Source: an uncultured delta proteobacterium (GTDB lineage Bacteria > Desulfobacterota > Binatia > UBA9968). Taken from it: 64,000 nt of DNA. The stretch lies in the NCBI GenBank assembly GCA_963745835.1, contig CAVUZH010000003.1, positions 256,001 to 320,000 of the forward strand. Direction: 5' to 3'. Shown here one piece after another: positions 51,879-64,000 of the stretch. The position numbers and the translations under genes were made by a program. Under the pieces are notes generated by a model, which did no database searches, was not told the DNA's origin, and saw only the letters and a list, made by a program, of their open reading frames with translations. Positions within the stretch are counted from its first letter, which is position 1. Each line of letters opens with the position of its first letter.

Positions 51879-54800
51879 TCAAACGAATCTCTGGACACGA
51901 GATGAACACTTTGGATTCACAGCCTGCCACCCTTCTTTGGGAACGTACCGGTAAGCTAGCTGCGCTTCAGGCTCGATGGCGATGAGATACAGCCATTGGT
52001 TATCGTACAGTCGCTGCAAATGGCGTTGGTTGCTGATGATTTTATCGATTCTTTCCCTGGGCGCCTCCACCAGGGTCACGAGCCGCATCGGCTCATGGTA
52101 GGGCCGCATTCCATTCATGACCGTCTGCCAGGCCAGGCCGGTGCGCAGGTCGCTCTGGGGACCGGACATAATCCCAAAGCGGCCGACTACGTTGTGGTAG
52201 ATTTTGCTACCGCTGCCGTAGCCCGCCGGATCCACTACGGAAAAGTAATGCTCCATATTGATCCATTGTCCGACGATCTGCGGTCCGGCCATCACGACCT
52301 CGAGCAAGCGGCCGTCCGGATCTTCACGGTAATCGTAAGAATGCAGAAAGGCCCGGGCGTCAAGATTGATGCCGCGGGTCAAAGCGCGGCGCCCAATGAT
52401 AAATGCGGCATTGCCGGATAGCCCCCATTCGGGACGGACCTGGCTCCAGTCGGCGCTTCGGCGGTGTACCGTGCGCCGGGCTTTCGAAGCGCCCAGGCTT
52501 ACCTTGATCTCGGGAAATCTAGCGCATCGCTCTTGGCTGTTGCGCGCTCCCGCCGATTCAAGATCGCGGACTAGTTGGAGCAGATCCTTGCGGTGAGTAG
52601 GGGGGAGATCTTCCAGATCGAAGAGATCGATGTCATCGGTGGTGGTATTGTGTTGTCCGGCGATGAAGTAGGTGTCCTGCGGAATGGCAATGCCGTTCTT
52701 GGCGAGCTGCTCCCGCACCAGGGGTTTGTTCGCCATGATCGCCAGCACCCTCGCGTTGGGCTTGCCCGGGTTGCCGCCACAGGCGCCGCAATCGAGAGCC
52801 GCTTCGAAGGGGTTGTTCTCGGAGGTGCTGCCATGGCCGCAAAAAAGCACGAGACGGGCAAAGTTCCGCGTCAGCCCCATCATTCTTAGCGCGGTTTCCA
52901 CGGTGAAGACTTGCTCGCTGAGAGTGAACCCGGTCCGGGTGATACGCTCCATACGAGCAAATGACGCGCCCGGGTTGATGCCGTGGTTTCGCCTGAGATC
53001 TTCAACAAATGCCGCTTCTTCTTCGCGGGAAAGCGCGGTGGAGCGCGCCTGCGGCGATGGTTCCCCCGCGCTCTGTCCGTCGAGCGCCCGCCGACGCAAA
53101 AACTCCAAGCGTTCCAGCGATAGGTTCAGATGGCGCTCACCGAAATTTTCCTGCAGCGCGCGGCGGGTAATTGCGCGCTGTTCCGCCGCCAACATTTCCT
53201 CTACTTCTTCGCGTGACAGTTTGTCTACAGTCAAAGTCGTCGCTACCGGCGGGACCATCTTGCGCCGAAGCCAGCTCATGACGTTTCTATACCAGGTTGG
53301 CCAAAGGGTCTTGCCGACAAAGGGCAGGCTGTAAAACCAACCCAGCGACTCCACCATGACATACGGAGTGACGACATTTTCCTTAAGATCGTAGAGCAGG
53401 GTGTGTCCGGTTTCGAGAAGTTTTTCCCGGTGCCGGCGTCTGAATAAATAGTGGCCTTGATAGGTCCGGGGAATCTCGCGGACCAAATTTTTAGTCTTCA
53501 TGATTACCGGAAACTGATCGGTTTCATGATGGCTGCCGAGGCCCTGGTAGCGGATGAAGACGGCGAAAAAACCTGCGAAGCCGAAGGTCTCGTAATCGCC
53601 AATCGCTTCCAAGTGACGCCGGATCGACTCCGAACGGACGTCGATGCAAAACACCGCCTGCGCCTGATGACGTACTTTTATTTCACCCGGCAATTCGCTT
53701 TGCTCCCCGGCTGGCGCAGATGGGCTTCGACCGGAAGCGACTTGGCTGGCTTGACCGAGGTTTACGGGGAGCTTGCCCAGCAGTTCTTCCTGGTATCCCG
53801 CCTCGAACGCCCTGAGCCATATGGGCCCATGGTCCGCTTCAGGAAATCCATCGATCCACTCGAGCAGTGTCAGCAGGTTGCCGGGCTCGCTTTGCATCAG
53901 AATACCGGAATCATGTCCGAGAGCTTGCGCAAGTGCGAACAAGCGCCAGGCGCCGACGAGAGCTGCCGGGCTATGCTCCTGTGCTTGGCCGAAATATTTC
54001 GGAGATAAGTTGTCGCGCCGCTGCATCTCAGTCAATATTGCATCGATGTTGCCGTCGATGCCGAGCGATTGACGACAGGCTTTTTGCACCAACTCACGTT
54101 CATACCAAACTCGCACCGCAAGATACTGCGCCAGATCGACGGGATAGGCGAGCTGCCATTCATATTCACTTTGATCGGCGCGCCATTTGATGAAGCCCGC
54201 CCATCCCGATAGAGCCACGAGGTGAAGCGAGAGATAATCCTGCCGGGCATCGACCGGGATACCAAGGGTCGCTAAACTTTCGAGCAGCGCATCTTCCGGC
54301 TGCTCCGGCAATCGGCCCAGCTTCTCGCGACTGTTCTCGATTGCTGCGGGAGACCATTCCTGTTGAGCGAGAAATCTCCAGGCGGCGTAGAAACCCTTCT
54401 CACGCCGCGGCATAGGCCAGGTGGCATGACCTTCGTCCAAAAACGCCTCGCACCATTTAACCAATTCACGGTTAATTTGCTCGCCGATTTGGGTGCCCAG
54501 GGTGCGATCGCACCAGCTGGCCAGCATCAGAGTTCGACCGAGATCTCCCTGCTCTGCGGTAGCCCGCCAGCTCTGCGGCGGTTTCGCAGCCGACGTCAGA
54601 TGATTTGCCAGCGATTTGATCGCGTTGCGCTCGGGATGGCGCTCGAGCAGAGTGGCGAAACTGTCATCAGGAGGAGGAGAAAGATCTTGCAGCATGCAGG
54701 CGCGAAGCACGGCCCCGAGAGTCACGTCATGAGCGCCTAATTGGACGTGCCTGTTTTCTGCGCGCGCTTTTAGCGCGGCATCGAGTTGATCGGGCAGAAT

Positions 54801-55049
54801 CCGGCCCGAGCGGAAATAGTCGCGAAAAACTTCAACGGACAAATAACCCTTGCCGTCGAGCAATCGCTCAGCCCGAGAAATGGCCTCTTCAAAATGGAGA
54901 TACTCCAGGCCGTGTAGCGGATTGTGGTGCACGAATGTGCGCATGGGCCAGTAATCGGCAATGACCTCGCTCGCCAGTAGGATCAACGCTCGGAGCTCAC
55001 TCCGCTGGGATTCGCTGTACTGTGTTGCTGCCATTTGTGCCGTAGTCAT
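51879..55049 (-). CDS. dabA: DabA/DUF2309 (UPF0753) inorganic carbon transporter catalytic subunit
   Basis: WP..TFVHHNPL, FCIDVRSE, GHGS, LDCGACGG (Zn ligands), RPEWGL, FLHSY and HEP.RL; ATGA overlap with dabB. Confidence 0.93.
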   Translation of the reverse strand: MTTAQMAATQYSESQRSELRALILLASEVIADYWPMRTFVHHNPLHGLEYLHFEEAISRAERLLDGKGYLSVEVFRDYFRSGRILPDQLDAALKARAENRHVQLGAHDVTLGAVLRACMLQDLSPPPDDSFATLLERHPERNAIKSLANHLTSAAKPPQSWRATAEQGDLGRTLMLASWCDRTLGTQIGEQINRELVKWCEAFLDEGHATWPMPRREKGFYAAWRFLAQQEWSPAAIENSREKLGRLPEQPEDALLESLATLGIPVDARQDYLSLHLVALSGWAGFIKWRADQSEYEWQLAYPVDLAQYLAVRVWYERELVQKACRQSLGIDGNIDAILTEMQRRDNLSPKYFGQAQEHSPAALVGAWRLFALAQALGHDSGILMQSEPGNLLTLLEWIDGFPEADHGPIWLRAFEAGYQEELLGKLPVNLGQASQVASGRSPSAPAGEQSELPGEIKVRHQAQAVFCIDVRSESIRRHLEAIGDYETFGFAGFFAVFIRYQGLGSHHETDQFPVIMKTKNLVREIPRTYQGHYLFRRRHREKLLETGHTLLYDLKENVVTPYVMVESLGWFYSLPFVGKTLWPTWYRNVMSWLRRKMVPPVATTLTVDKLSREEVEEMLAAEQRAITRRALQENFGERHLNLSLERLEFLRRRALDGQSAGEPSPQARSTALSREEEAAFVEDLRRNHGINPGASFARMERITRTGFTLSEQVFTVETALRMMGLTRNFARLVLFCGHGSTSENNPFEAALDCGACGGNPGKPNARVLAIMANKPLVREQLAKNGIAIPQDTYFIAGQHNTTTDDIDLFDLEDLPPTHRKDLLQLVRDLESAGARNSQERCARFPEIKVSLGASKARRTVHRRSADWSQVRPEWGLSGNAAFIIGRRALTRGINLDARAFLHSYDYREDPDGRLLEVVMAGPQIVGQWINMEHYFSVVDPAGYGSGSKIYHNVVGRFGIMSGPQSDLRTGLAWQTVMNGMRPYHEPMRLVTLVEAPRERIDKIISNQRHLQRLYDNQWLYLIAIEPEAQLAYRYVPKEGWQAVNPKCSSRVQRFV

Positions 55050-57620
55050 CTCCATGGCATGCGAGTGCCGTGCGCCAGTGGAACGGTTTCGAACCAATCA
55101 AGCGGCACGGCGCCGAGGGCGATTAGAATCAGCAGCAGAAGCGCGAACACCGCAACCTCACTTGTTTGGAAGTCGTTATAGCGAATATCGGAGCGGTGCG
55201 GACCAAACAGAAGCCGCTGCATCATTCTGAACAAATACCACGATGCCAAGAACCAGGTGAATAGAATCACCATCAGTCCCCACGAAACCGTAGCCGAAGC
55301 CTGCAGCAACATCGCCACATATGCGGAAAAAACGCCAAACGGAAGCAGCCCTAAGGCCGCCATAACCAACAAAGAAAACACGGTAGCAAAGCGGGGCATC
55401 GGCCCTGCCAAACCGTGCATGCCGTCTAAAGTCAAATCGCCGTACCGTCCACGTACGCGTTCCCAAGCAAGGAGCAGTCCGGCGGAAATCAATATTGTCG
55501 TGACCAAGTAGATGATTGCTTGAACAGCCAGATTTCCTGTAATGCCGAGACTCCACCACAGAGCTGAAAAGAAAGCTACGCCGGCGTAGGCCACAAGTTG
55601 CGGAACTCTCGTTTGACCCAAAGCTTTGAGCGATCCATACACCGCGCCGAATAAGGCCAGCACGCTTACGGCACGAAGAGTCTCGACCGGAAGATCCGGC
55701 ATCAACTGAGCGATCCCGAACACTCCCGCCGCCGGCAGCAGCATGGCGAGGACTACTGCTTGATATCCTGGCCAGCGCGTGAGCGCAGCCACGTAGATTC
55801 CGTGCAGGGGAAAGAGTGGTAGCAGAATAGCAATCAAGATGAATAACCCGATTTCCGCCGGCTGACCCGGCAGCCGCGCGCCGAAGGCTAGTGCCGAGCC
55901 AATGGCGATCAAAGCTGCCAGATACGGGAAGACTCTGCTTGCATTCAGACGATCGACCTCACCTCTAAAGAGTTGGGTGAATCTGATGGCTAGCGCATCG
56001 AGGTAGAGTCGATTCATCAAAAGCAGGTAAATACGAACCCGTAAGTGATTCACCCATTCCGGCATGCCGATCGTTCGCCCATGGCTCTCTGCATAAATCA
56101 GAATCCAGCCAAGAATGATGACCAAGGCAAACGCCGATACCAAGACATCGAACAGTAGGACCGGTAAAGCGCCGGCTTGAAAGTGGGCAGCTACCTGGCC
56201 CGGCGCCGGAAATAAGAAGTGTGTGAAGCTTTCCGCTGCCAGCAGATAGGTGATGACCACGAGGAAGAGTGTAAAGAGCATGCTCATAGCCACCTTCCAA
56301 GTAGCGACCGCCCGCAGGCGATATAGTGTCAGGATGGCTTGGGAAGAGGTGGCCCAGCCGAAGAAGAGAAAGATCGTCGTTCCCTGTGAATCTCTCAATG
56401 GAATGCGCAGGATGCCATGAGCCGCTAGCAGGATGATCAACGGAAGGATCAGGGTTGTAAGAAATCCGGTGAGCCAGGTGAGAGTCGAAAATTGACTTCT
56501 CTCGATTCCCTCACTCTTGGGAGGCAGTCGGGGTTCTTGGCGAGCGGCATGAATCACGTAGCCGCAATTTAAAAATATCGTGCCTTTAAACAGGCCATGG
56601 GCGATTAAGTGAAAGATTGCAAGGCCGTAGGCGCCCAGACCGCATTCCATAATCATAAAGCCCATCTGTCCAATGGTTGAATAGCCCAAGCGTCTTCTTG
56701 ATGTCGTTCTGAACCAGCATCATGGAAGAACCCAGCAGAGTAGTAACCATGCCGACGGCGAAGACCAGATGGAGCGTTGGCGGATTCAAATCGTAGAGCG
56801 GCGCCAGACGGGTCAAGAGAAAACCGCCTGCGTTGATAATTCCGGCGTGCAGCAGGGCATGGACCGGTGTCGGCGCGTACAGAGAATCGGGCAGCCACAT
56901 GTGCAATGGAAACTGCGCCGACTTGGTCATGGCGCCGATGAAAATCAATAGAGTGACGGCGGTGTCGGCGCGCATCTCGAAGCTACCGCCGGGCCCGAGA
57001 AAGAGCGAGCTTTGGACCTCGGCAGCGCGCAAAAACAGCTGCTGAAAATCCAAGCTGCCATACGTGCGATACGCCAGCACGATTGCGGCGAGAAAGGCAA
57101 CGTCGCCGATGCGCTGCATAACAAATGTTCTAAAGGCGCCCCGGACTGTTAGTGAGTGGCTGTAGTTGTGAGACAGGAGCGGCACGAGCCAACTCAGCAG
57201 TTGCCAGAATATGAAGAGCATTAGTAGATTGGCGCTCGACACCATGCCGAACAGAACGAAACCGGTAAAAGCCAGTAAGCTGTGAAAGCGAGTATATCCG
57301 CGCTCCTGTTGCATGTAGCGGATCGAAAATAGATGGATCAGGATACTGATTGCGGCGATATGCACGAGCATCACCGACGAAAGCCGATCAATGTGCAAAC
57401 CGAATTGTAAGATCCCGTCGTGCCAGGATGATAAATGGATGGTTTGCGGTCCGCGAGTGGTTACTTCGTAAAGGACCAGCAGCGAGAGCGCGAAAGAAAT
57501 CACTTCCGCCGCCACGCCGATCCGGCCAGCCTTAGGGCCGAGCGTGCGTCCCAGAAGGCCGATGATCAATCCCGCCGCCAACGGCAAAAGGAGTATCAAC
57601 GCAGGATAATAAGCGAGCAT
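55046..57620 (-). CDS. dabB: DabB (NuoL/ND5-like) membrane subunit with an extra C-terminal antiporter-like domain (frameshift near 56686)
   Basis: KSAQFPLHMWLP, APTPV.ALLHAG.INAGG. Removing one base from CCC 56685-56687 gives KKTLGYSTIGQMG...HLIAHGLFK; about 857 aa. Confidence 0.88.
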
Positions 57621-57815: not shown

Positions 57816-58038
57816 GCCATTGCATCCGCTCATGAGCCGAATAGCAGCCGCCTTTTGATTCACCAGGCACCGAACTGTGCTGATTAGCAAACCGGATGAT
57901 GGTCAGATTGCTTGCCGCCCGCCAGTAGCGATGCTAAAGACATAGCCACTCATGACGACTTAGTTTGTTTGCGCGCGAAATCGTAAAGGTGATCGTTAGA
58001 CGGAAAAGCATGGTTTTTCAACTAGGACACTAATTTAT

Positions 58039-58941
58039 ATGGATGCGTACGATATTGTAGTAGCCGGCGGCGGAATGGCCGGCCTGAGTGCTGCTCTGTA
58101 CGGCGGCTGGCTGGGACATACGGTTTTCCTTGCCGAACGGCAGATGTTTGGCGGGCAGATTGTCAACGCCGATCAGATCGAGAATTATCCGGGCTTCCCG
58201 GACGGTGTTTTGGGTGCTGACTTGGTGTCGCAAGTGCGCATGCAAGCGTTAAAGCTCGGCGCAAAGATGCAATACCTCGAAATGACCGGCATTAAGACTG
58301 AGGGAGACGGGTTCCAATTGGCTACGGCGGAGGAACCGATTCAAGCAAAGACCGTGATCGTTGCGACAGGGGGCAATCACCGGGTTCTCGGAATCAGGGG
58401 AGAAGCCGAATTCGAAGGCCGGGGCGTTTCCCGCTGTGCTACTTGCGATGGCGCATTTTTCCGGGACCAGCCTGTGGCAGTCGTTGGCGGCGGTGATACA
58501 GCTCTCGATGAAGCTTTGTATCTTTCAAAGATTGCCTCACGGGTCACCATCATCCTTCAAGAGGCAACGCCTATCGCGAGCGAAACTCTATTGCGCCGTG
58601 CGCGAGAGAATCCGAAGATCGAGTTTGTCGCAAATGCAACGCTTGAAGAAATTTCCGGTAACCATTCGATCGAATCACTACGCTTGAATAACGGAACTCA
58701 TGTCCCGGTTGCCGGCGTATTTGTCGCCATTGGGTTCGAACCTGAGACCAGTCTTTTGAAGAATCTCGTGGAGCTGGACCCGATCGGGCATGCGCCGGTG
58801 GACATTCATATGCAGACCACCGTGCCTGGACTCTTCGCCGTCGGATCGGCGCGGCAAGGAAACGCCGGACAACTTGTAAGCGCGGCCGGGGATGGCGTTA
58901 CCGCAGCGCTGGCGGCGCACCGGTACCTTATGAATATTTGA
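58039..58941 (+). CDS. Thioredoxin reductase-like FAD-dependent disulfide reductase
   Basis: GGG.AG, GGQ...IENYPGF, GVS.CATCDG and GGGDTA. Confidence 0.9.
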   Translation: MDAYDIVVAGGGMAGLSAALYGGWLGHTVFLAERQMFGGQIVNADQIENYPGFPDGVLGADLVSQVRMQALKLGAKMQYLEMTGIKTEGDGFQLATAEEPIQAKTVIVATGGNHRVLGIRGEAEFEGRGVSRCATCDGAFFRDQPVAVVGGGDTALDEALYLSKIASRVTIILQEATPIASETLLRRARENPKIEFVANATLEEISGNHSIESLRLNNGTHVPVAGVFVAIGFEPETSLLKNLVELDPIGHAPVDIHMQTTVPGLFAVGSARQGNAGQLVSAAGDGVTAALAAHRYLMNI

Positions 58942-59310
58942 ATTGAACCGGATCGGTCATTACTCCGCGGCTGCTCATCTATTCCAACTCCACTTAGGCA
59001 GGCTGCCTGCGCCTATCGTCATAGAATTTGCAATCGATAACGAGTAGTAGTTTCGTAGCCGCGGATATTTCTTTTCTTCTCTAGGCATCATCCAATCTAA
59101 AATGCGGCGATATGTGGGAAACGGCCGGCGATCATTAGCTGCGCGATCCCTCGGATCGGGTCGATGTTTGTCCGTCCCGTGATTCGAGCTCACGGTTGCG
59201 GCGCATGGATGACTTGCATATAACGGACAAACAACTGAAAAAAATTCTTTATGCCAGTTCTTGTATGAGAGTCTCACAAAACACCTGGTCTCTTAGGAGG
59301 ATGCAGTCCA

Positions 59311-59847
59311 ATGGCAATGCTCAAGATGCTTGACCCAAGAGCCAGTGTAAATCCCGAAGAGCGGCCTCTGATGCCGGGCTTGGATTCGCTGGAAGGGAAG
59401 GTAATCGGCATTATCGACAACGGCCAATCAAATTCCACGGCGATGTTCCAAGAATTGGCGAAGTTGATGCGGGAAAAATTTCAAACAGCAGAAATAGTTT
59501 TTAAGACGAAGCCCTCGCATATGCAGGGAGCGCCCAGGCCGATTATAGAGGAATTCGTCAGCCGTTGTGATGCGGTGATCACCGGCCTGGGAGCTTGAGG
59601 GTCGTGCACGTCGTGGAGTGTCCACGACGCCATCGAGCTGCAAAAAAAGGGAAAGCCGACAGTTACTCTGTGTCAATCGATTTTCATGGAGCTGGCCAAG
59701 ACCGAAGCGAAGTTCTTTGGGCTCGCTACGCTTCCATTGGTGGAAATTCCACATCATCCGAGCGGCGGCGCCAGAGCCGGCGAGCATCGCGCCGATGCCG
59801 AAGGAGCGGTGGATTTGGTGCGCCAGCGGCTGACACTGGCGATATAG
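59311..59847 (+). CDS. UGSC-motif selenoprotein (Sec at TGA 59596-59598), 178 aa
   Basis: Reading through the TGA gives ...[31 protein letters not shown]...LPLVEIPHHP...TLAI, ending at TAG 59845-59847; AGGAGG RBS. Confidence 0.88.
59609..59629 (+). promoter_or_regulatory. Bacterial SECIS-like hairpin
   Basis: CGTCGTGGA-GTG-TCCACGACG is a perfect 9-bp stem starting 10 nt after the TGA, with a G-led loop. Confidence 0.7.
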
Positions 59848-60031
59848 AGGCAGCACCTGCCAGGTCAAACATAGCTTGGGCTAAGAACATCGACAGAGTA
59901 ATGGAGATGATCGTAAAAAGCCTGCAAGGCACCCCTACCTCAATCCTGCCCCGCAAGGCGGAAGGAAGAAGACGCGAACCGCGAACACCCGGCCACAAGA
60001 CCGCTCGTAGCAGGTACTTAGGAGTTTGCTG

Positions 60032-61099
60032 ATGACGACCCTCACCTCACCCATCATTGAAGTCGAAGACAGTTGGGAAGCGGCCAACGATTGGTTCTGC
60101 CGTGAAAAGCTGAGCGATGGTTTACCGATCGTACCGCCGACTCCGGAGCGCGTGACGAGAATGCTCGAGGGCGCCGACCGTGATCCGCAGGAAGTGATCG
60201 GCCTCATCCCGCCAAAGTGGGCGCCGGCAAGCATAGAGAAGCTGGCCATCAACGCCGTCATGGCCGGATGCCTGCCGGAATACTTGCCGGTGATTATTGC
60301 CGCTGTCGAAGCAATCTGCGAGCCCCGGTTCAACCTCTACGGCGTGCAGGCAACCACCGGGTACGTCGGTCCGGCGCTGCTTCTCAACGGTCCGATCAGG
60401 ACCGCGCTCAACGTCAATTGCGACTCCGGCGTTTTTGGCCCTGGTTTTCGAGCGAACGCGACCATCGGCCGCGCGATTCGCTTGATACTCATCACGATCG
60501 GCGGAGGTTTTCCCGGCGACACTGATCGATCGACCTTCGGTTGGCCGGGCAAGTACACCATGTGCTTCGGTGAAAATCAGGAGAAAAGCCCCTGGGAGCC
60601 GTATCACGTGGAAATGGGTTTCAAGCCTGATGACAGCACCGTGACCGTTTTCGGCATCAATGGTTTCCTGCCGATTCACACTGCCGGCAATCGCGGCGAG
60701 CAGGCGCTCTCCTCATTGGCCGAAGTCATAAAGATGCACCATGGCGTGAGCCATCTCGATGTCGGCAGCTTCGGAGGCGGAACGCCGCTCATCGGCCTCG
60801 GCATCGAAGACGCGGAGATCATGGCTCGGGACGGTATCACCAAGAAGCAAGTTAAGGATTATCTCTGGGAGCATGCATCGTTGAAATTTACTGAAGTTCC
60901 CGCACGGCGCAAGGGACATAAAGGTGATGATGAGCTGCTGCGCGAATCGCCAAACGTCACGCCGGACGGGGTCGTTCACCTGTCGACCAAAGCCGAAGAT
61001 ATTATGGTCGTGGTGCTCGGCGGCAAGCACCGCCATTCCGTCTTCCTGCCGATGTGGACCGGCCGGAACACTTTATCGGTGATTAAACCGATTCGATGA
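60032..61099 (+). CDS. Conserved protein of unknown function (DGLP..PPT.ERV family), presumed UGSC partner
   Basis: DGLPIVPPTPERV, EKLAINAVMAGC.PEY, RANATIGRA.RL and SPWEP.H. Confidence 0.8.
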   Translation: MTTLTSPIIEVEDSWEAANDWFCREKLSDGLPIVPPTPERVTRMLEGADRDPQEVIGLIPPKWAPASIEKLAINAVMAGCLPEYLPVIIAAVEAICEPRFNLYGVQATTGYVGPALLLNGPIRTALNVNCDSGVFGPGFRANATIGRAIRLILITIGGGFPGDTDRSTFGWPGKYTMCFGENQEKSPWEPYHVEMGFKPDDSTVTVFGINGFLPIHTAGNRGEQALSSLAEVIKMHHGVSHLDVGSFGGGTPLIGLGIEDAEIMARDGITKKQVKDYLWEHASLKFTEVPARRKGHKGDDELLRESPNVTPDGVVHLSTKAEDIMVVVLGGKHRHSVFLPMWTGRNTLSVIKPIR

Positions 61100-61270: not shown

Positions 61271-62266
61271 ATGAATCGAAAAACATCCGTATGCGCCATA
61301 ACTGTTTTTTTTCTTTGCATCGGTTGGCGTGCCATGGCGCAGGACAAAGTTAGAATGGGGTTGAGCTCGGTGAGCGGTTTGCACACCGCTGTGTGGGTGG
61401 CTGAAACAAAAGGACTCTTTCGCAAACATGGCATCGATCCTGAAGTGATCGTCACCGGCCAGGGTGGGACCGCCGGCATCAGTGCGCTCATCGCCAACGA
61501 CGTGCAGATGGTGAATTCAGCCGGCGATGTCTTGGTCGCAGCTTCGTTGCGCGGCGGCGATACGGTCATGGTCGCCAGTGTTGTCAACAAAGGACTGCAA
61601 CGACTTATTACCAAGCCGGATATAACAACGCCCGCGGAGCTGAAGGGAAAGCGGGTTGGCGTCACTCGCATCGGCGCGGTTTCCCATTCGGTTCTGCTCA
61701 TGATGCTGCAACGATGGAAGATGAGCGTGAATGATGTCCAGGTCCTTCAACTCGGTTCCTCGCCGAGTATGCTGGCGAGCCTCGACAAGGGAGGTATCGA
61801 AGGAGCCGTGGTGACGATTCCTTCGATGTTCGTCGCCGAAGATCGCGGTTATAAAGTGTTGCTCGACATGGCGGATACGGATATTTACTACCTGCACACG
61901 ATGGTCGCGACAACGCGCCAATACATCAAGAACAATCGCGACAAAGTGGTGCGATTTCTCAAGGGTTACGTCGAAGGAATTGCGTTCGTCAAGCATAACA
62001 AGCAGGAGAGTTTGGACATCGTCAAGAAGAAGCTTCGCATCGGTCCCGAGCAGGAAAAAAACCTGGAACGCTCCATAGATCTGTTAATCGCGAAATACTA
62101 CGAGTCTGTGCCATATCCGTCATTGCGCGGCGTCGAAACGGTGCTCGGCTTCATCGAAAAGGACAATCCGAAAGCCAAAGGCGCGGACCCTAAAATGTTT
62201 GTCGATGATAGCCTGCTGCGCGAGATCGAGGCGAGCGGCTTCGTAAAAACACTTTACCAACGTTAG
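61271..62266 (+). CDS. ABC-type substrate-binding protein, NMT1/SsuA-like
   Basis: Signal peptide, GLFRKHG, ELKGKRVG, PYPS and EIEASGFV..LY. Confidence 0.88.
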   Translation: MNRKTSVCAITVFFLCIGWRAMAQDKVRMGLSSVSGLHTAVWVAETKGLFRKHGIDPEVIVTGQGGTAGISALIANDVQMVNSAGDVLVAASLRGGDTVMVASVVNKGLQRLITKPDITTPAELKGKRVGVTRIGAVSHSVLLMMLQRWKMSVNDVQVLQLGSSPSMLASLDKGGIEGAVVTIPSMFVAEDRGYKVLLDMADTDIYYLHTMVATTRQYIKNNRDKVVRFLKGYVEGIAFVKHNKQESLDIVKKKLRIGPEQEKNLERSIDLLIAKYYESVPYPSLRGVETVLGFIEKDNPKAKGADPKMFVDDSLLREIEASGFVKTLYQR

Positions 62267-62500: not shown

Positions 62501-63334
62501 ATGGCAGAAGTAAAGGATTTCAAAACCGTCAAAGTTGAAAAAGACCAGGGCATCGCCTGGGTCATTCTTAATCGTCCCGAGAAGCGCAACGCGATGAATC
62601 CCCAGCTGCACTACGACATGCTCGAGGCGCTTACCGAACTGGAAGTCGACAAGGACAGCAAAGTTGTCGTGATCACCGGCGCTGGTCCGAGCTGGTGCGC
62701 CGGTCAGGACCTGCGCGAATATTTCAGGGGAACCGATACCAACCCGGTGGAAAGGCGAAAAGCCAGCTGGGCCTCTCAGGAGTGGCGCTGGCGCCGGCTA
62801 TTTACCTTTCCGAAACCGACCATTGCGATGGTCAACGGCTTTTGTTTCGGCGGCGCGTTTACGCCATTGATCGCCTGTGATTTCGCGATTGCCGCCGAGG
62901 ATGCGGTCTTTGGACTAAGCGAAATCAACTGGGGGATCTTTCCCGGCGGGCTGGTGAGCCGGGTACTAGCCGATGCCATGTGCTACCGAGATGCGATGTG
63001 GTACATCATGACCGGCGATCCGTTTGACGGTAAAAAGGCTGCGGAATTGAAGCTGATCAATTACGCTGTGCCGAAAGAACAACTGCGCGACGAGACCGTC
63101 AAGCTTGCCAAGAAATTGATGGAAAAAAATCCCCAGGTGCTCAGAGCCGCCAAGGAAGTTTTCAAGTACTGCCGCACCATGGATTACAATCAGGCAGAAG
63201 AGTATATGAGCGCCAAGGGCACTGCGCTTCGTCTGACCGATCCGGAAAAGGGCCGTGAGACGGGGATGAAACAGTTCCTGGATGAGAAGACCTATCGGCC
63301 GGGGCTGGGCGCTTACAACCGCGAGGCCAAGTAG
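62501..63334 (+). CDS. ech: p-Hydroxycinnamoyl-CoA hydratase/lyase (HCHL, crotonase family)
   Basis: AGQDLREYFR, W.WRRL, GLSEINWGI.PGG and the C-terminal G.KQFLDEK.YRPGLGAY. Confidence 0.88.
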   Translation: MAEVKDFKTVKVEKDQGIAWVILNRPEKRNAMNPQLHYDMLEALTELEVDKDSKVVVITGAGPSWCAGQDLREYFRGTDTNPVERRKASWASQEWRWRRLFTFPKPTIAMVNGFCFGGAFTPLIACDFAIAAEDAVFGLSEINWGIFPGGLVSRVLADAMCYRDAMWYIMTGDPFDGKKAAELKLINYAVPKEQLRDETVKLAKKLMEKNPQVLRAAKEVFKYCRTMDYNQAEEYMSAKGTALRLTDPEKGRETGMKQFLDEKTYRPGLGAYNREAK

Positions 63335-63439
63335 GTTCTAATTTTCAAATTGGTCTTTGAAATAAGTCTAAAGTAATCGGGTGTGGACGGGCTTGATTAA
63401 GCCCCGTCCAAATCCCGAAAGAAGCGAGACGGAGCCGAG

Positions 63440-64000
63440 GTGGACTTCAATTTACCCGAAGAGTTGCAGCTCTTAAAAGAGACCGTTCGCAAATTCGTCG
63501 ACAGAGAGCTGATTCCGTTGGAGCGCGAGTGCCGGCCTGAGGGCGAGGACATGCCGGAACAATACATCAAACCGCTCCAGGAGAAAGCGAAGGCTATCGG
63601 TCTTTGGCTGTTGGACGTGCCGCCTGAGTACGGCGGCGCGGGCCTCGATCTGATGAGCCGTTGCGTCATCATGGAAGAGGTCGCGCGCACGGTTGCGATT
63701 CCGTTTCGCTATGCGCCGATCTTTGGCCCGGAAGTCCGGCCGGTGCTGTTTCATTGTAACGAGGAACAGAAGGAACGTTTTCTTTACCCGGTGATACGCG
63801 GCGAGAAACGCGTTTGCTTCGCGCAAACCGAACCCGACGCCGGTAGCGATCCGGCAGGCATGAAAACCCGCGCCGTCAAGAATGGCGATCAGTACATTAT
63901 CAATGGCACAAAACGTTTCATCACCGGCGCCAAGTCGGCGGATTACGCTCAGGTGATCGCTGTGACCGATCCGGAAAAAGGCGCGCGTGGCGGCGTAACC
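63440..64000 (+). CDS. Acyl-CoA dehydrogenase, 3'-truncated
   Basis: From GTG 63440: MDFNLPEELQLL...PPEYGGAG...FAQTEPDAGSD...INGTKRFIT; open to the window end. Confidence 0.92.
   Translation, partial: MDFNLPEELQLLKETVRKFVDRELIPLERECRPEGEDMPEQYIKPLQEKAKAIGLWLLDVPPEYGGAGLDLMSRCVIMEEVARTVAIPFRYAPIFGPEVRPVLFHCNEEQKERFLYPVIRGEKRVCFAQTEPDAGSDPAGMKTRAVKNGDQYIINGTKRFITGAKSADYAQVIAVTDPEKGARGGVT

Follow-up and report, generated by a model that had tools for sequence, protein, structure and literature searches.

In the 64,000-nucleotide (nt) stretch of DNA analyzed here, which we call the window (C3:256001-320000 of source genome G000), we focused on a gene of the UGSC family that contains an in-frame TGA. 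We conclude that this TGA is a selenocysteine (Sec) codon in a member of an already catalogued selenoprotein family. The gene is followed by one for a partner protein of about 355 amino acids (aa), and the explanation that we consider best overall, in which we have high confidence, joins a selenoprotein gene to a model of a two-part enzyme. The source genome is a metagenome-type bin of 7.28 Mb in 25 contigs, with a completeness of 97.1% and an estimated contamination of 9.33%.

The list of open reading frames (ORFs) gives the gene as a 95-aa ORF (59311..59598) that terminates at the TGA at 59596-59598. When 59311-59847 was translated with TGA read as Sec (U), we obtained a product of 178 residues with a single recoded codon, U96, 82 sense codons 3' of the TGA, and a TAG stop at 59845-59847. 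A preliminary description of this DNA had claimed that the frame runs on for 82 sense codons without an alternative start near the TGA and that the TGA sits in a UxxC motif, and translation confirmed both statements. The first in-frame ATG, GTG or TTG past the TGA is the ATG at 59686, 29 codons on, and thus there is no restart nearby. The motif reads G-L-G-A-U96-G97-S98-C99, in which Cys99 is the presumed resolving cysteine. A start at the ATG at 59326 (M6) is a possible alternative to the one used here, and one database relative, P0271, begins there.

The read-through product matched the UGSC profile PF24696 with 145 bits against a cut-off of 25 (E 3.2e-42), and the match covered profile positions 2-171 of 172 and residues 6-175, spanning the TGA. 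NF041046 was the sole NCBIfam match (residues 29-175, positions 2-147 of 147, E 9.5e-32, with U scored as C). We aligned 32 sequences, consisting of the window copy and 31 further loci and omitting L056, which is nearly identical to the window. In this alignment the Sec column and C99 were invariant, G97 and S98 were nearly invariant, and the invariant columns past the TGA were C99, G114, F125, G137 and P150. Comparison with 12 orthologs gave 25-35 synonymous and 5-24 non-synonymous changed codons in the 82 codons past the TGA, and 29-35 synonymous and 18-36 non-synonymous changed codons in the 90 codons before it. Therefore, constraint past the TGA is no weaker than constraint before it.

These results can be set against the reading that the TGA is a true stop in a split or decaying gene, with a 95-aa product and the rest either untranslated or restarting at the ATG at 59686. 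Standard gene calling does yield the 95-aa ORF, and 47 of 63 database relatives end at the TGA, covering just 53% of the read-through protein. However, the 29 codons before the ATG at 59686 hold the invariant C99 and G114 as well as a conserved SWSVHD, the frame past the TGA shows the excess of synonymous changes given above, and a single hidden Markov model (PF24696) spans both halves. In addition, every one of the 84 copies that span the site in related genomes keeps one TGA, unlike what decay would leave, and complete Sec machinery is present (see below). We consider a true stop very unlikely.

Conservation of the TGA was followed across genomes. The source genome contained seven PF24696 matches with one TGA apiece, all within the motif [GA]-x-G-x-U-[GS]-[ST]-C. 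Among 41 genomes of the same order, G000 included, we found 88 UGSC matches in 34 genomes, and all 84 matches spanning the site carried exactly one TGA. The remaining four were contig-end fragments that stop short of the site (profile positions 100-171, 2-80, 99-171 and 2-87). These counts take in G012, with 2 matches, and G018, with none, both of them unpublished; when the two are excluded, the family is found in 33 of 39 genomes, the TGA in 82 of 82 spanning matches, and selA over its cut-off in 37 of 39 genomes. At 33 of 36 retrieved loci the TGA was placed in a G-x-G-x-U-x-x-C motif. Of the others, L027, which reads A-V-G-H-U-S-T-C, was missed by the pattern, and L037 and L039 were set aside. 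In genus g20, 11 genomes carried a single ortholog each of the window copy, 65-87% identical to it, and four closed, single-contig genomes held both the ortholog and selA. The related genome G015 has 12 UGSC copies.

The family also has Cys forms. Two stand-alone proteins, P0327 and P0328, have CGSC and match PF24696 over its full length, and seven more join CGSC to the partner in one chain (P0038, P0041, P0046, P0085, P0091, P0102 and P0143). Homologs with Cys at the TGA position, which the preliminary description had named as something to look for, were thus found. The existence of Cys forms, together with the origin of the sequence in a metagenome-type bin of 25 contigs with 9.33% contamination, lends something to the idea that TGC or TGT was turned into TGA by faulty assembly or sequencing, in the gene of an ordinary Cys-form protein. 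Against this idea, the TGA is common to all seven paralogs in the source genome, to all 33 motif-located loci, and to closed genomes. Contigs assembled from four public runs in four studies had no other letter at 59596-59598 among the matches listed, which is weak evidence when taken alone. The sign named in advance as speaking against a Sec codon, TGC or TGT at this site, was therefore seen neither in the related genomes nor in the public-run contigs among the matches listed, and we regard the probability of an error as negligible.

The preliminary description had also noted a perfect 9-bp hairpin with a G-led loop starting 10 nt downstream of the TGA. We found nine Watson-Crick pairs closing a GUG loop, with the first base of the hairpin 10 nt past the last base of the TGA. 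In isolation the hairpin folded at -13.5 kcal/mol; in a 71-nt context the energy was -28.0 kcal/mol (z = -2.93), a value equaled by 1 of 200 shuffles. The consensus for bacterial selenocysteine insertion sequence (SECIS) elements, as set out in the portion of PMC13188914 used here, has an apical loop of 3-9 nt with a G within its first two positions, an upper stem of 4-16 bp, UGA and loop 16-37 nt apart, and a minimum free energy of -7.5 kcal/mol or lower. The window hairpin falls within each of these ranges, with a 3-nt GUG loop, a 9-bp stem, 19 nt from UGA to loop, and the isolated folding energy given above.

We then aligned 27 of 29 distinct 60-nt segments, omitting the most divergent paralogs, L025 and L026, which have predicted hairpins elsewhere. 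Pairing was retained in 92.2% of cells, compared with 18-53% when the 3' partners were slid by 1-3 columns. Four of the nine pairs had changed on both sides, giving a covariation score that was reached by none of 500 shuffles, although kinship among the sequences inflates such shuffle tests. The pairing survives even two double changes that replace residues of the protein, W to G together with H to L in L034. In contigs from the four public runs, depth was greatest over the bin 59593-59669. Many of the foreign contigs aligned solely from 59595/6 to 59628/9, which is the TGA and the hairpin. A search of 58500-60500 against Rfam at E<=10 returned two chance-level matches (U7 and RMST_5) and no bacterial SECIS family. 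The case that hairpin and TGA stand above chance comes mainly from the comparison with related genomes, and these comparisons indicate that the hairpin at 59609-59629 is a bacterial SECIS element under constraint at the RNA level. We propose that the UGA is almost certainly decoded as Sec, and that SelB, loaded with Sec-tRNA(Sec), would be recruited by this hairpin within the coding sequence.

Decoding of this kind depends on selA, selB, selC and selD, which the preliminary description had listed as genes to find in the genome, and the source genome has all four. The selA (608.6 bits), selB (394.3 bits) and selD (383.4 bits) genes were all over their cut-offs and lie in one cluster at C22:65479-70161, and a tRNA-Sec with anticodon TCA (74.2 bits) lies on C13. 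Across the same order, selA was over its cut-off in 39 of 41 genomes, G000 included. The selD gene of the source genome (C22:69235-70161) itself has one in-frame TGA, and its product, selenophosphate synthetase, appears to be a selenoprotein as well.

A further alternative is that the UGA is read by means other than Sec, either through reassignment to Trp or Gly or through near-cognate read-through. Among JGI records, the four closest full-length ones (P0269-P0272) print W at the Sec position, as calling in the style of genetic code 4 renders TGA. Within the window, however, TGA is the stop of 20 of the 40 longest non-overlapping ORFs, family-matched genes included, and therefore there is no genome-wide reassignment. 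In homologs the site also lines up with Cys, which fits Sec and would not be expected of Trp, and the TGA is followed by the predicted SECIS hairpin with its RNA-level constraint. Non-Sec decoding is even less likely, in our view, than a true stop. Taken together with the 47 relatives truncated at the TGA, the four W records mean that the UGSC gene is mis-recorded in public collections.

The gene that follows, 180 nt further on, encodes the partner. Its true start is likely the ATG at 60032, which lies 7 nt past a GGAG (60021-60024) and gives 355 aa, a length like that of most relatives. A search with the 357-aa partner ORF by tblastn found exactly seven sites in the source genome, each directly after a UGSC gene or fused to one. 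In the C20 and C15 copies, UGSC and partner form one frame of 586 and 554 aa, respectively, and the remaining five UGSC copies are separate genes. Across the 33 motif-located loci a partner homolog adjoined UGSC every time, lying upstream of it at L034 and L035. The spacer between the two genes (59848-60025) is 178 nt in the ortholog group of the window, with short or no gaps in other paralogs, and had no Rfam match.

The partner had no Pfam or NCBIfam match. Its homologs numbered 5095 cluster representatives at E<=0.001, or 1333 when the limit was E<=1e-30, and relatives are labelled "hypothetical protein" in their source records. A protein atlas placed it with its own clusters alone, under the automatic name "thioredoxin family". 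The AlphaFold2 (AF2) model of the partner had a mean predicted local distance difference test (pLDDT) score of 83.8. No solved relative was found by Foldseek at E<=0.001, or below E 0.86 in a profile search of PDB sequences; the best VIA match (Z 5.8, rmsd 4.5 A over 97 residues) fell on a chorismate-mutase/YjgF-like C-terminal part. In two proteins, P0068 and P0098, an N-terminal AhpC/TSA-Redoxin domain with CxxT or CxxC replaces UGSC before the partner. Six chains of 709-741 aa (P0003, P0008, P0015, P0054, P0112 and P0136) matched the partner in two to three separate stretches each, which suggests tandem duplication of the partner domain; P0003 and P0008 had no Pfam match.

We also examined predicted structures. 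The AF2 model of the UGSC product (pLDDT 87.4, predicted template modeling score 0.84) has five consecutive beta-alpha units, with residue 96 between a strand at 88-94 and a helix at 97-112. Fold searches with Foldseek and VIA returned flavodoxin-, CheY- and periplasmic-binding-protein-like structures and no thioredoxin among the matches listed, the best match having Z 11.0 and an rmsd of 2.7 A over 124 residues. A profile search of PDB sequences gave nothing below E 0.049. On the strength of the model, the UGSC product would be a flavodoxin-like domain of five beta-alpha units, with Sec96 in the loop after strand 3 and before helix 3 and Cys99 within helix 3 (97-112), and Sec96 and Cys99 may form a selenenylsulfide redox pair.

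For a prediction of the complex we divided P0038, a Cys-form fusion that occurs naturally, into residues 1-176 and 196-528, and used an alignment of 10 rows that we built from library proteins. The domain pair scored 0.77, compared with 0.00 for the best of three controls. Of 80 solved complexes, 58 reach the mark for this score, as do 2 of 110 mismatched pairs, and these counts are approximate with an alignment of our own. Contacts agreed between runs to 92% or more, and the pLDDT of the partner was 82 or higher. The confident interface comprised residues 5-17 and 97-103 (C-G-S-C-T-A-W) on the UGSC side and residues 216-222, 239-248, 251-258, 284-291 and 332-338 on the partner side. With an offset of 179, the latter map to the P-P-T, N-A-V-M-A-G, Q-A-T-T and G-R-A-x-R-L...G-G-G motifs of the window partner, which are its most conserved columns. 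The prediction supports contact of the two domains within a fusion.

Because of the strict gene pairing, the natural fusions and this complex prediction, we propose a two-part enzyme in which UGSC is the small redox subunit and the partner the large one; the Sec loop and N-terminal arm of UGSC would dock on the most conserved motifs of the partner. We consider this arrangement somewhat probable, and the enzyme is likely a two-subunit, selenium-dependent reductase. Alternatively, UGSC could be a free-standing, general thiol-selenol oxidoreductase of the thioredoxin-like kind suggested in 2008, with the 355-aa protein as a client or a co-regulated protein. That five of the seven copies in the source genome are separate genes is consistent with this alternative, and the ability of a Redoxin domain to take the place of UGSC before the partner fits an exchangeable reductant. 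It accords poorly, however, with the one-to-one pairing (seven and seven in G000, 33 of 33 loci), with repeated natural fusions to the partner, with a predicted interface that packs the Sec motif and N-terminal arm on the most conserved partner motifs, and with an AF2 model of five beta-alpha units that had no thioredoxin among the matches listed. A free-standing oxidoreductase is therefore unlikely, though much less so than the alternatives to Sec decoding.

A candidate source of reducing power lies upstream. The flavoprotein gene at 58039-58941 encodes a protein like thioredoxin reductase (TrxR), with a Pyr_redox_2 domain (E 6e-46); it aligned to all 300 positions of TIGR01292 with 301.2 bits and did not reach the cut-off of 343.45. 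The canonical TrxB of the source genome is the single copy over that cut-off (418.4 bits) and lies on C13, away from the UGSC modules. Exactly four TrxR-like paralogs fell below the cut-off (265.5-313.2 bits), and all four adjoin UGSC modules, namely those in the window and on C2, C20 and C17. All four keep C-A-[TS]-C, which is CATC in the window copy, and all four lack the H-R-R-D..R stretch of canonical TrxB. This stretch would bind the 2'-phosphate of NADPH, and from its absence a preference of the window flavoprotein for NADH may tentatively be predicted. In the copy beside the second C17 module (L067; C17:19079-19927), the FAD-binding GxGxxG has given way to a scrambled N-terminus with an in-frame TGA, which looks like the result of a frameshift or of decay and not like a Sec codon. 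Tentatively, reducing power may arrive through a thiol-disulfide relay, which here would involve the TrxR-like flavoprotein and elsewhere a thioredoxin-fold domain fused to the partner.

We compared the module with known systems. In the portions of PMC2398784, PMC13188914, PMC9312934 and PMC1976440 used here, UGSC is among the most abundant predicted selenoprotein families of aquatic metagenomes and a selenoprotein of unknown function since a 2007 listing. The preliminary description had called UGSC proteins a predicted selenoprotein family whose function is not established, and the first two of these sources say the same in those portions. The window product shares with this family (PF24696, NF041046; Zhang and Gladyshev 2008, PMC2398784) the full-length profile match and the position of U-G-S-C. 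Sec forms dominate in both: by the part of PMC2398784 consulted, the GOS data hold 255 forms with Sec and 21 with Cys, and here the count is 84 of 84 spanning matches. Fusion to a domain of unknown kind also occurs in both; the same part of that paper mentions a "UGSC/Unknown_1" fusion for its Figure S1A, and here the C20 and C15 copies are fused. We infer that "Unknown_1" would be the family of the window partner. Nothing essential differs from the UGSC family; the fold called "likely Trx-like" in the excerpted text of PMC2398784 is here predicted to be flavodoxin-like.

With selenoprotein B of the GrdB type and PrdB (PF07355), the likeness is in outline, a UxxC selenoprotein with a larger second subunit, and is an analogy and not membership. 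The UxxC motif of PrdB is among those tabulated in the section of PMC2398784 used here. By profile score alone, the UGSC product did not match PF07355 at E<=0.01, PF24696 being its sole Pfam family, and the partner had no match to a glycine-reductase family at E<=0.01. No selenoprotein A or acetyl-phosphate-forming component was seen near the UGSC module. Gene clusters for glycine, sarcosine and betaine reductases and for D-proline reductase often include thioredoxin-system genes. With the relay of thioredoxin reductase and thioredoxin (TIGR01292), the likeness is that the window flavoprotein aligns over its full length and keeps CATC, and UGSC or Redoxin would take the place of thioredoxin. 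In contrast to that relay, the flavoprotein is below the TIGR01292 cut-off and without HRRD..R, and the fold predicted for UGSC had no thioredoxin among the matches listed.

Several observations weigh against the selenoprotein and two-part enzyme interpretation. The UGSC product missed the NF041046 equivalog cut-off (110 vs 125 bits), and the sel genes are on C22 and C13 and not on C3, the contig of the window, in a bin with the contamination given above. Two UGSC-bearing draft genomes, G007 and G015, had no selA, selB or selD over the cut-offs. These drafts are in 210 and 240 contigs and have 1 and 12 TGA-bearing UGSC genes, respectively; given the single cluster in G000, their missing sel genes could lie on one unbinned contig. 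Contigs from RNA libraries bridge the TGA, and translation is not thereby shown. As for the enzyme, matches to generic flavodoxin- and CheY-like folds are uninformative on the chemistry of UGSC, and the complex prediction was run on a Cys-form fusion of a different organism and addresses neither the separate proteins of the window nor the binding of subunits. A TrxR-like gene was within 1.5 kb at just 4 of 33 loci, and at the orthologous locus of G006, from the same genus, window positions 58001-58889 are swapped for 206 nt (L077 7606-7811) between flanking blocks that are about 94-99% identical to the window, with about 94-95% identity in the flanks to either side of the difference. Presence or absence of the TrxR-like gene is thus polymorphic within the genus, and on these two grounds we rejected it as an obligate member of the module.

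The features of the window and the further UGSC paralogs of the source genome are collected in the table.

Table. Positions of the features discussed in the text; window coordinates unless a contig is named.
Feature	Position	Strand	Remarks
UGSC-family selenoprotein gene	59311..59847	+	178 aa, Sec at residue 96
Likely ribosome-binding site, AGGAGG	59295..59300	+	10 nt 5' of ATG 59311; read from the sequence
Sec-UGA codon (U96)	59596..59598	+	conserved TGA in UxxC motif
TGC codon, Cys99	59605..59607	+	column invariant in the 32-sequence alignment
Predicted SECIS hairpin	59609..59629	+	stems 59609-59617 / 59621-59629, loop GUG 59618-59620
Thioredoxin-reductase-like flavoprotein gene, 300 aa	58039..58941	+	CATC redox motif; accessory neighbor
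Partner protein gene	60026..61099	+	ORF of 357 aa from TTG 60026
NMT1-type solute-binding protein gene	61271..62266	+	PF09084, E 1.9e-22
Enoyl-CoA hydratase gene	62501..63334	+	ECH_1, E 3.6e-52
UGSC paralog with TGA	C17:2351-2878		
UGSC paralog with TGA	C3:664148-664660		
UGSC paralog with TGA	C17:15130-15639		
UGSC paralog with TGA	C2:83954-84493		
UGSC paralog with TGA	C20:54536-55009		
UGSC paralog with TGA	C15:89738-90208		

Just upstream of the module, on the minus strand (51879-56689), is a pair of inorganic-carbon transporter genes: one for DabA, of 1072 aa (PF10070, E 6e-274), and a DabB-like one with Proton_antipo_M. The pair recurs in G006, where a P-II gene comes after it. Scans for promoters and terminators were at chance level (3 found vs 3.2 expected, and 7 vs 4.9). 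Solute-binding proteins stand beside six of seven loci and were rejected as part of the module, since the source genome has at least 150 genes of the NMT1 type, and the one in the window is probably not specific to the module. This set of at least 150 NMT1/THI5-type genes, from a search that scored 150 of 400 candidates, is an unusually large expansion. After the enoyl-CoA hydratase gene come, on the same strand, an acyl-CoA dehydrogenase gene (from window position 63440, past the window end) and two family-III CoA-transferase genes; with the hydratase gene, they lie at window positions 62501-64000 and C3:319440-323430. Carboxylic acids and the corresponding CoA esters, to which these neighbors point, would be candidate substrates. 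Genes for enoyl-CoA hydratase, acyl-CoA dehydrogenase and a CoA ligase or transferase lie by the ortholog in the window, in G006 and in the closed genomes G037, G038 and G026, and not visibly in G028. Conserved synteny with these genes was rejected, as the hydratase and dehydrogenase of one group share just about 30% identity with those of the other, are not orthologous to them and are better matched by other genes of the genome. Acyl-CoA genes beside UGSC orthologs are at most a recurring theme.

What is new here is another member of the UGSC family and no new kind of element. Specific to the source genome are its seven modules, the position of all four TrxR-like paralogs beside modules, and the polymorphism of the flavoprotein gene in the genus. 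The pairing of UGSC with the partner is a useful lead toward function. It offers a testable setting, in which a selenoprotein is paired strictly one to one with a very large, unannotated family (5095 cluster representatives), with dedicated flavoprotein paralogs and with orthologs in closed genomes of relatives, which may be culturable. We put forward, as a possibility that we hold with less than even confidence, that these modules constitute an undescribed family of two-subunit selenium-dependent reductases, fed by TrxR-like flavoproteins or fused redoxin domains, in which the Sec loop would be the site of a composite active center and which would have radiated in a soil lineage to as many as 12 substrate-specific modules per genome (seven here), each in a different catabolic cluster. 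The copy in the window lies among genes for enoyl-CoA hydratase, acyl-CoA dehydrogenase and CoA-transferase.

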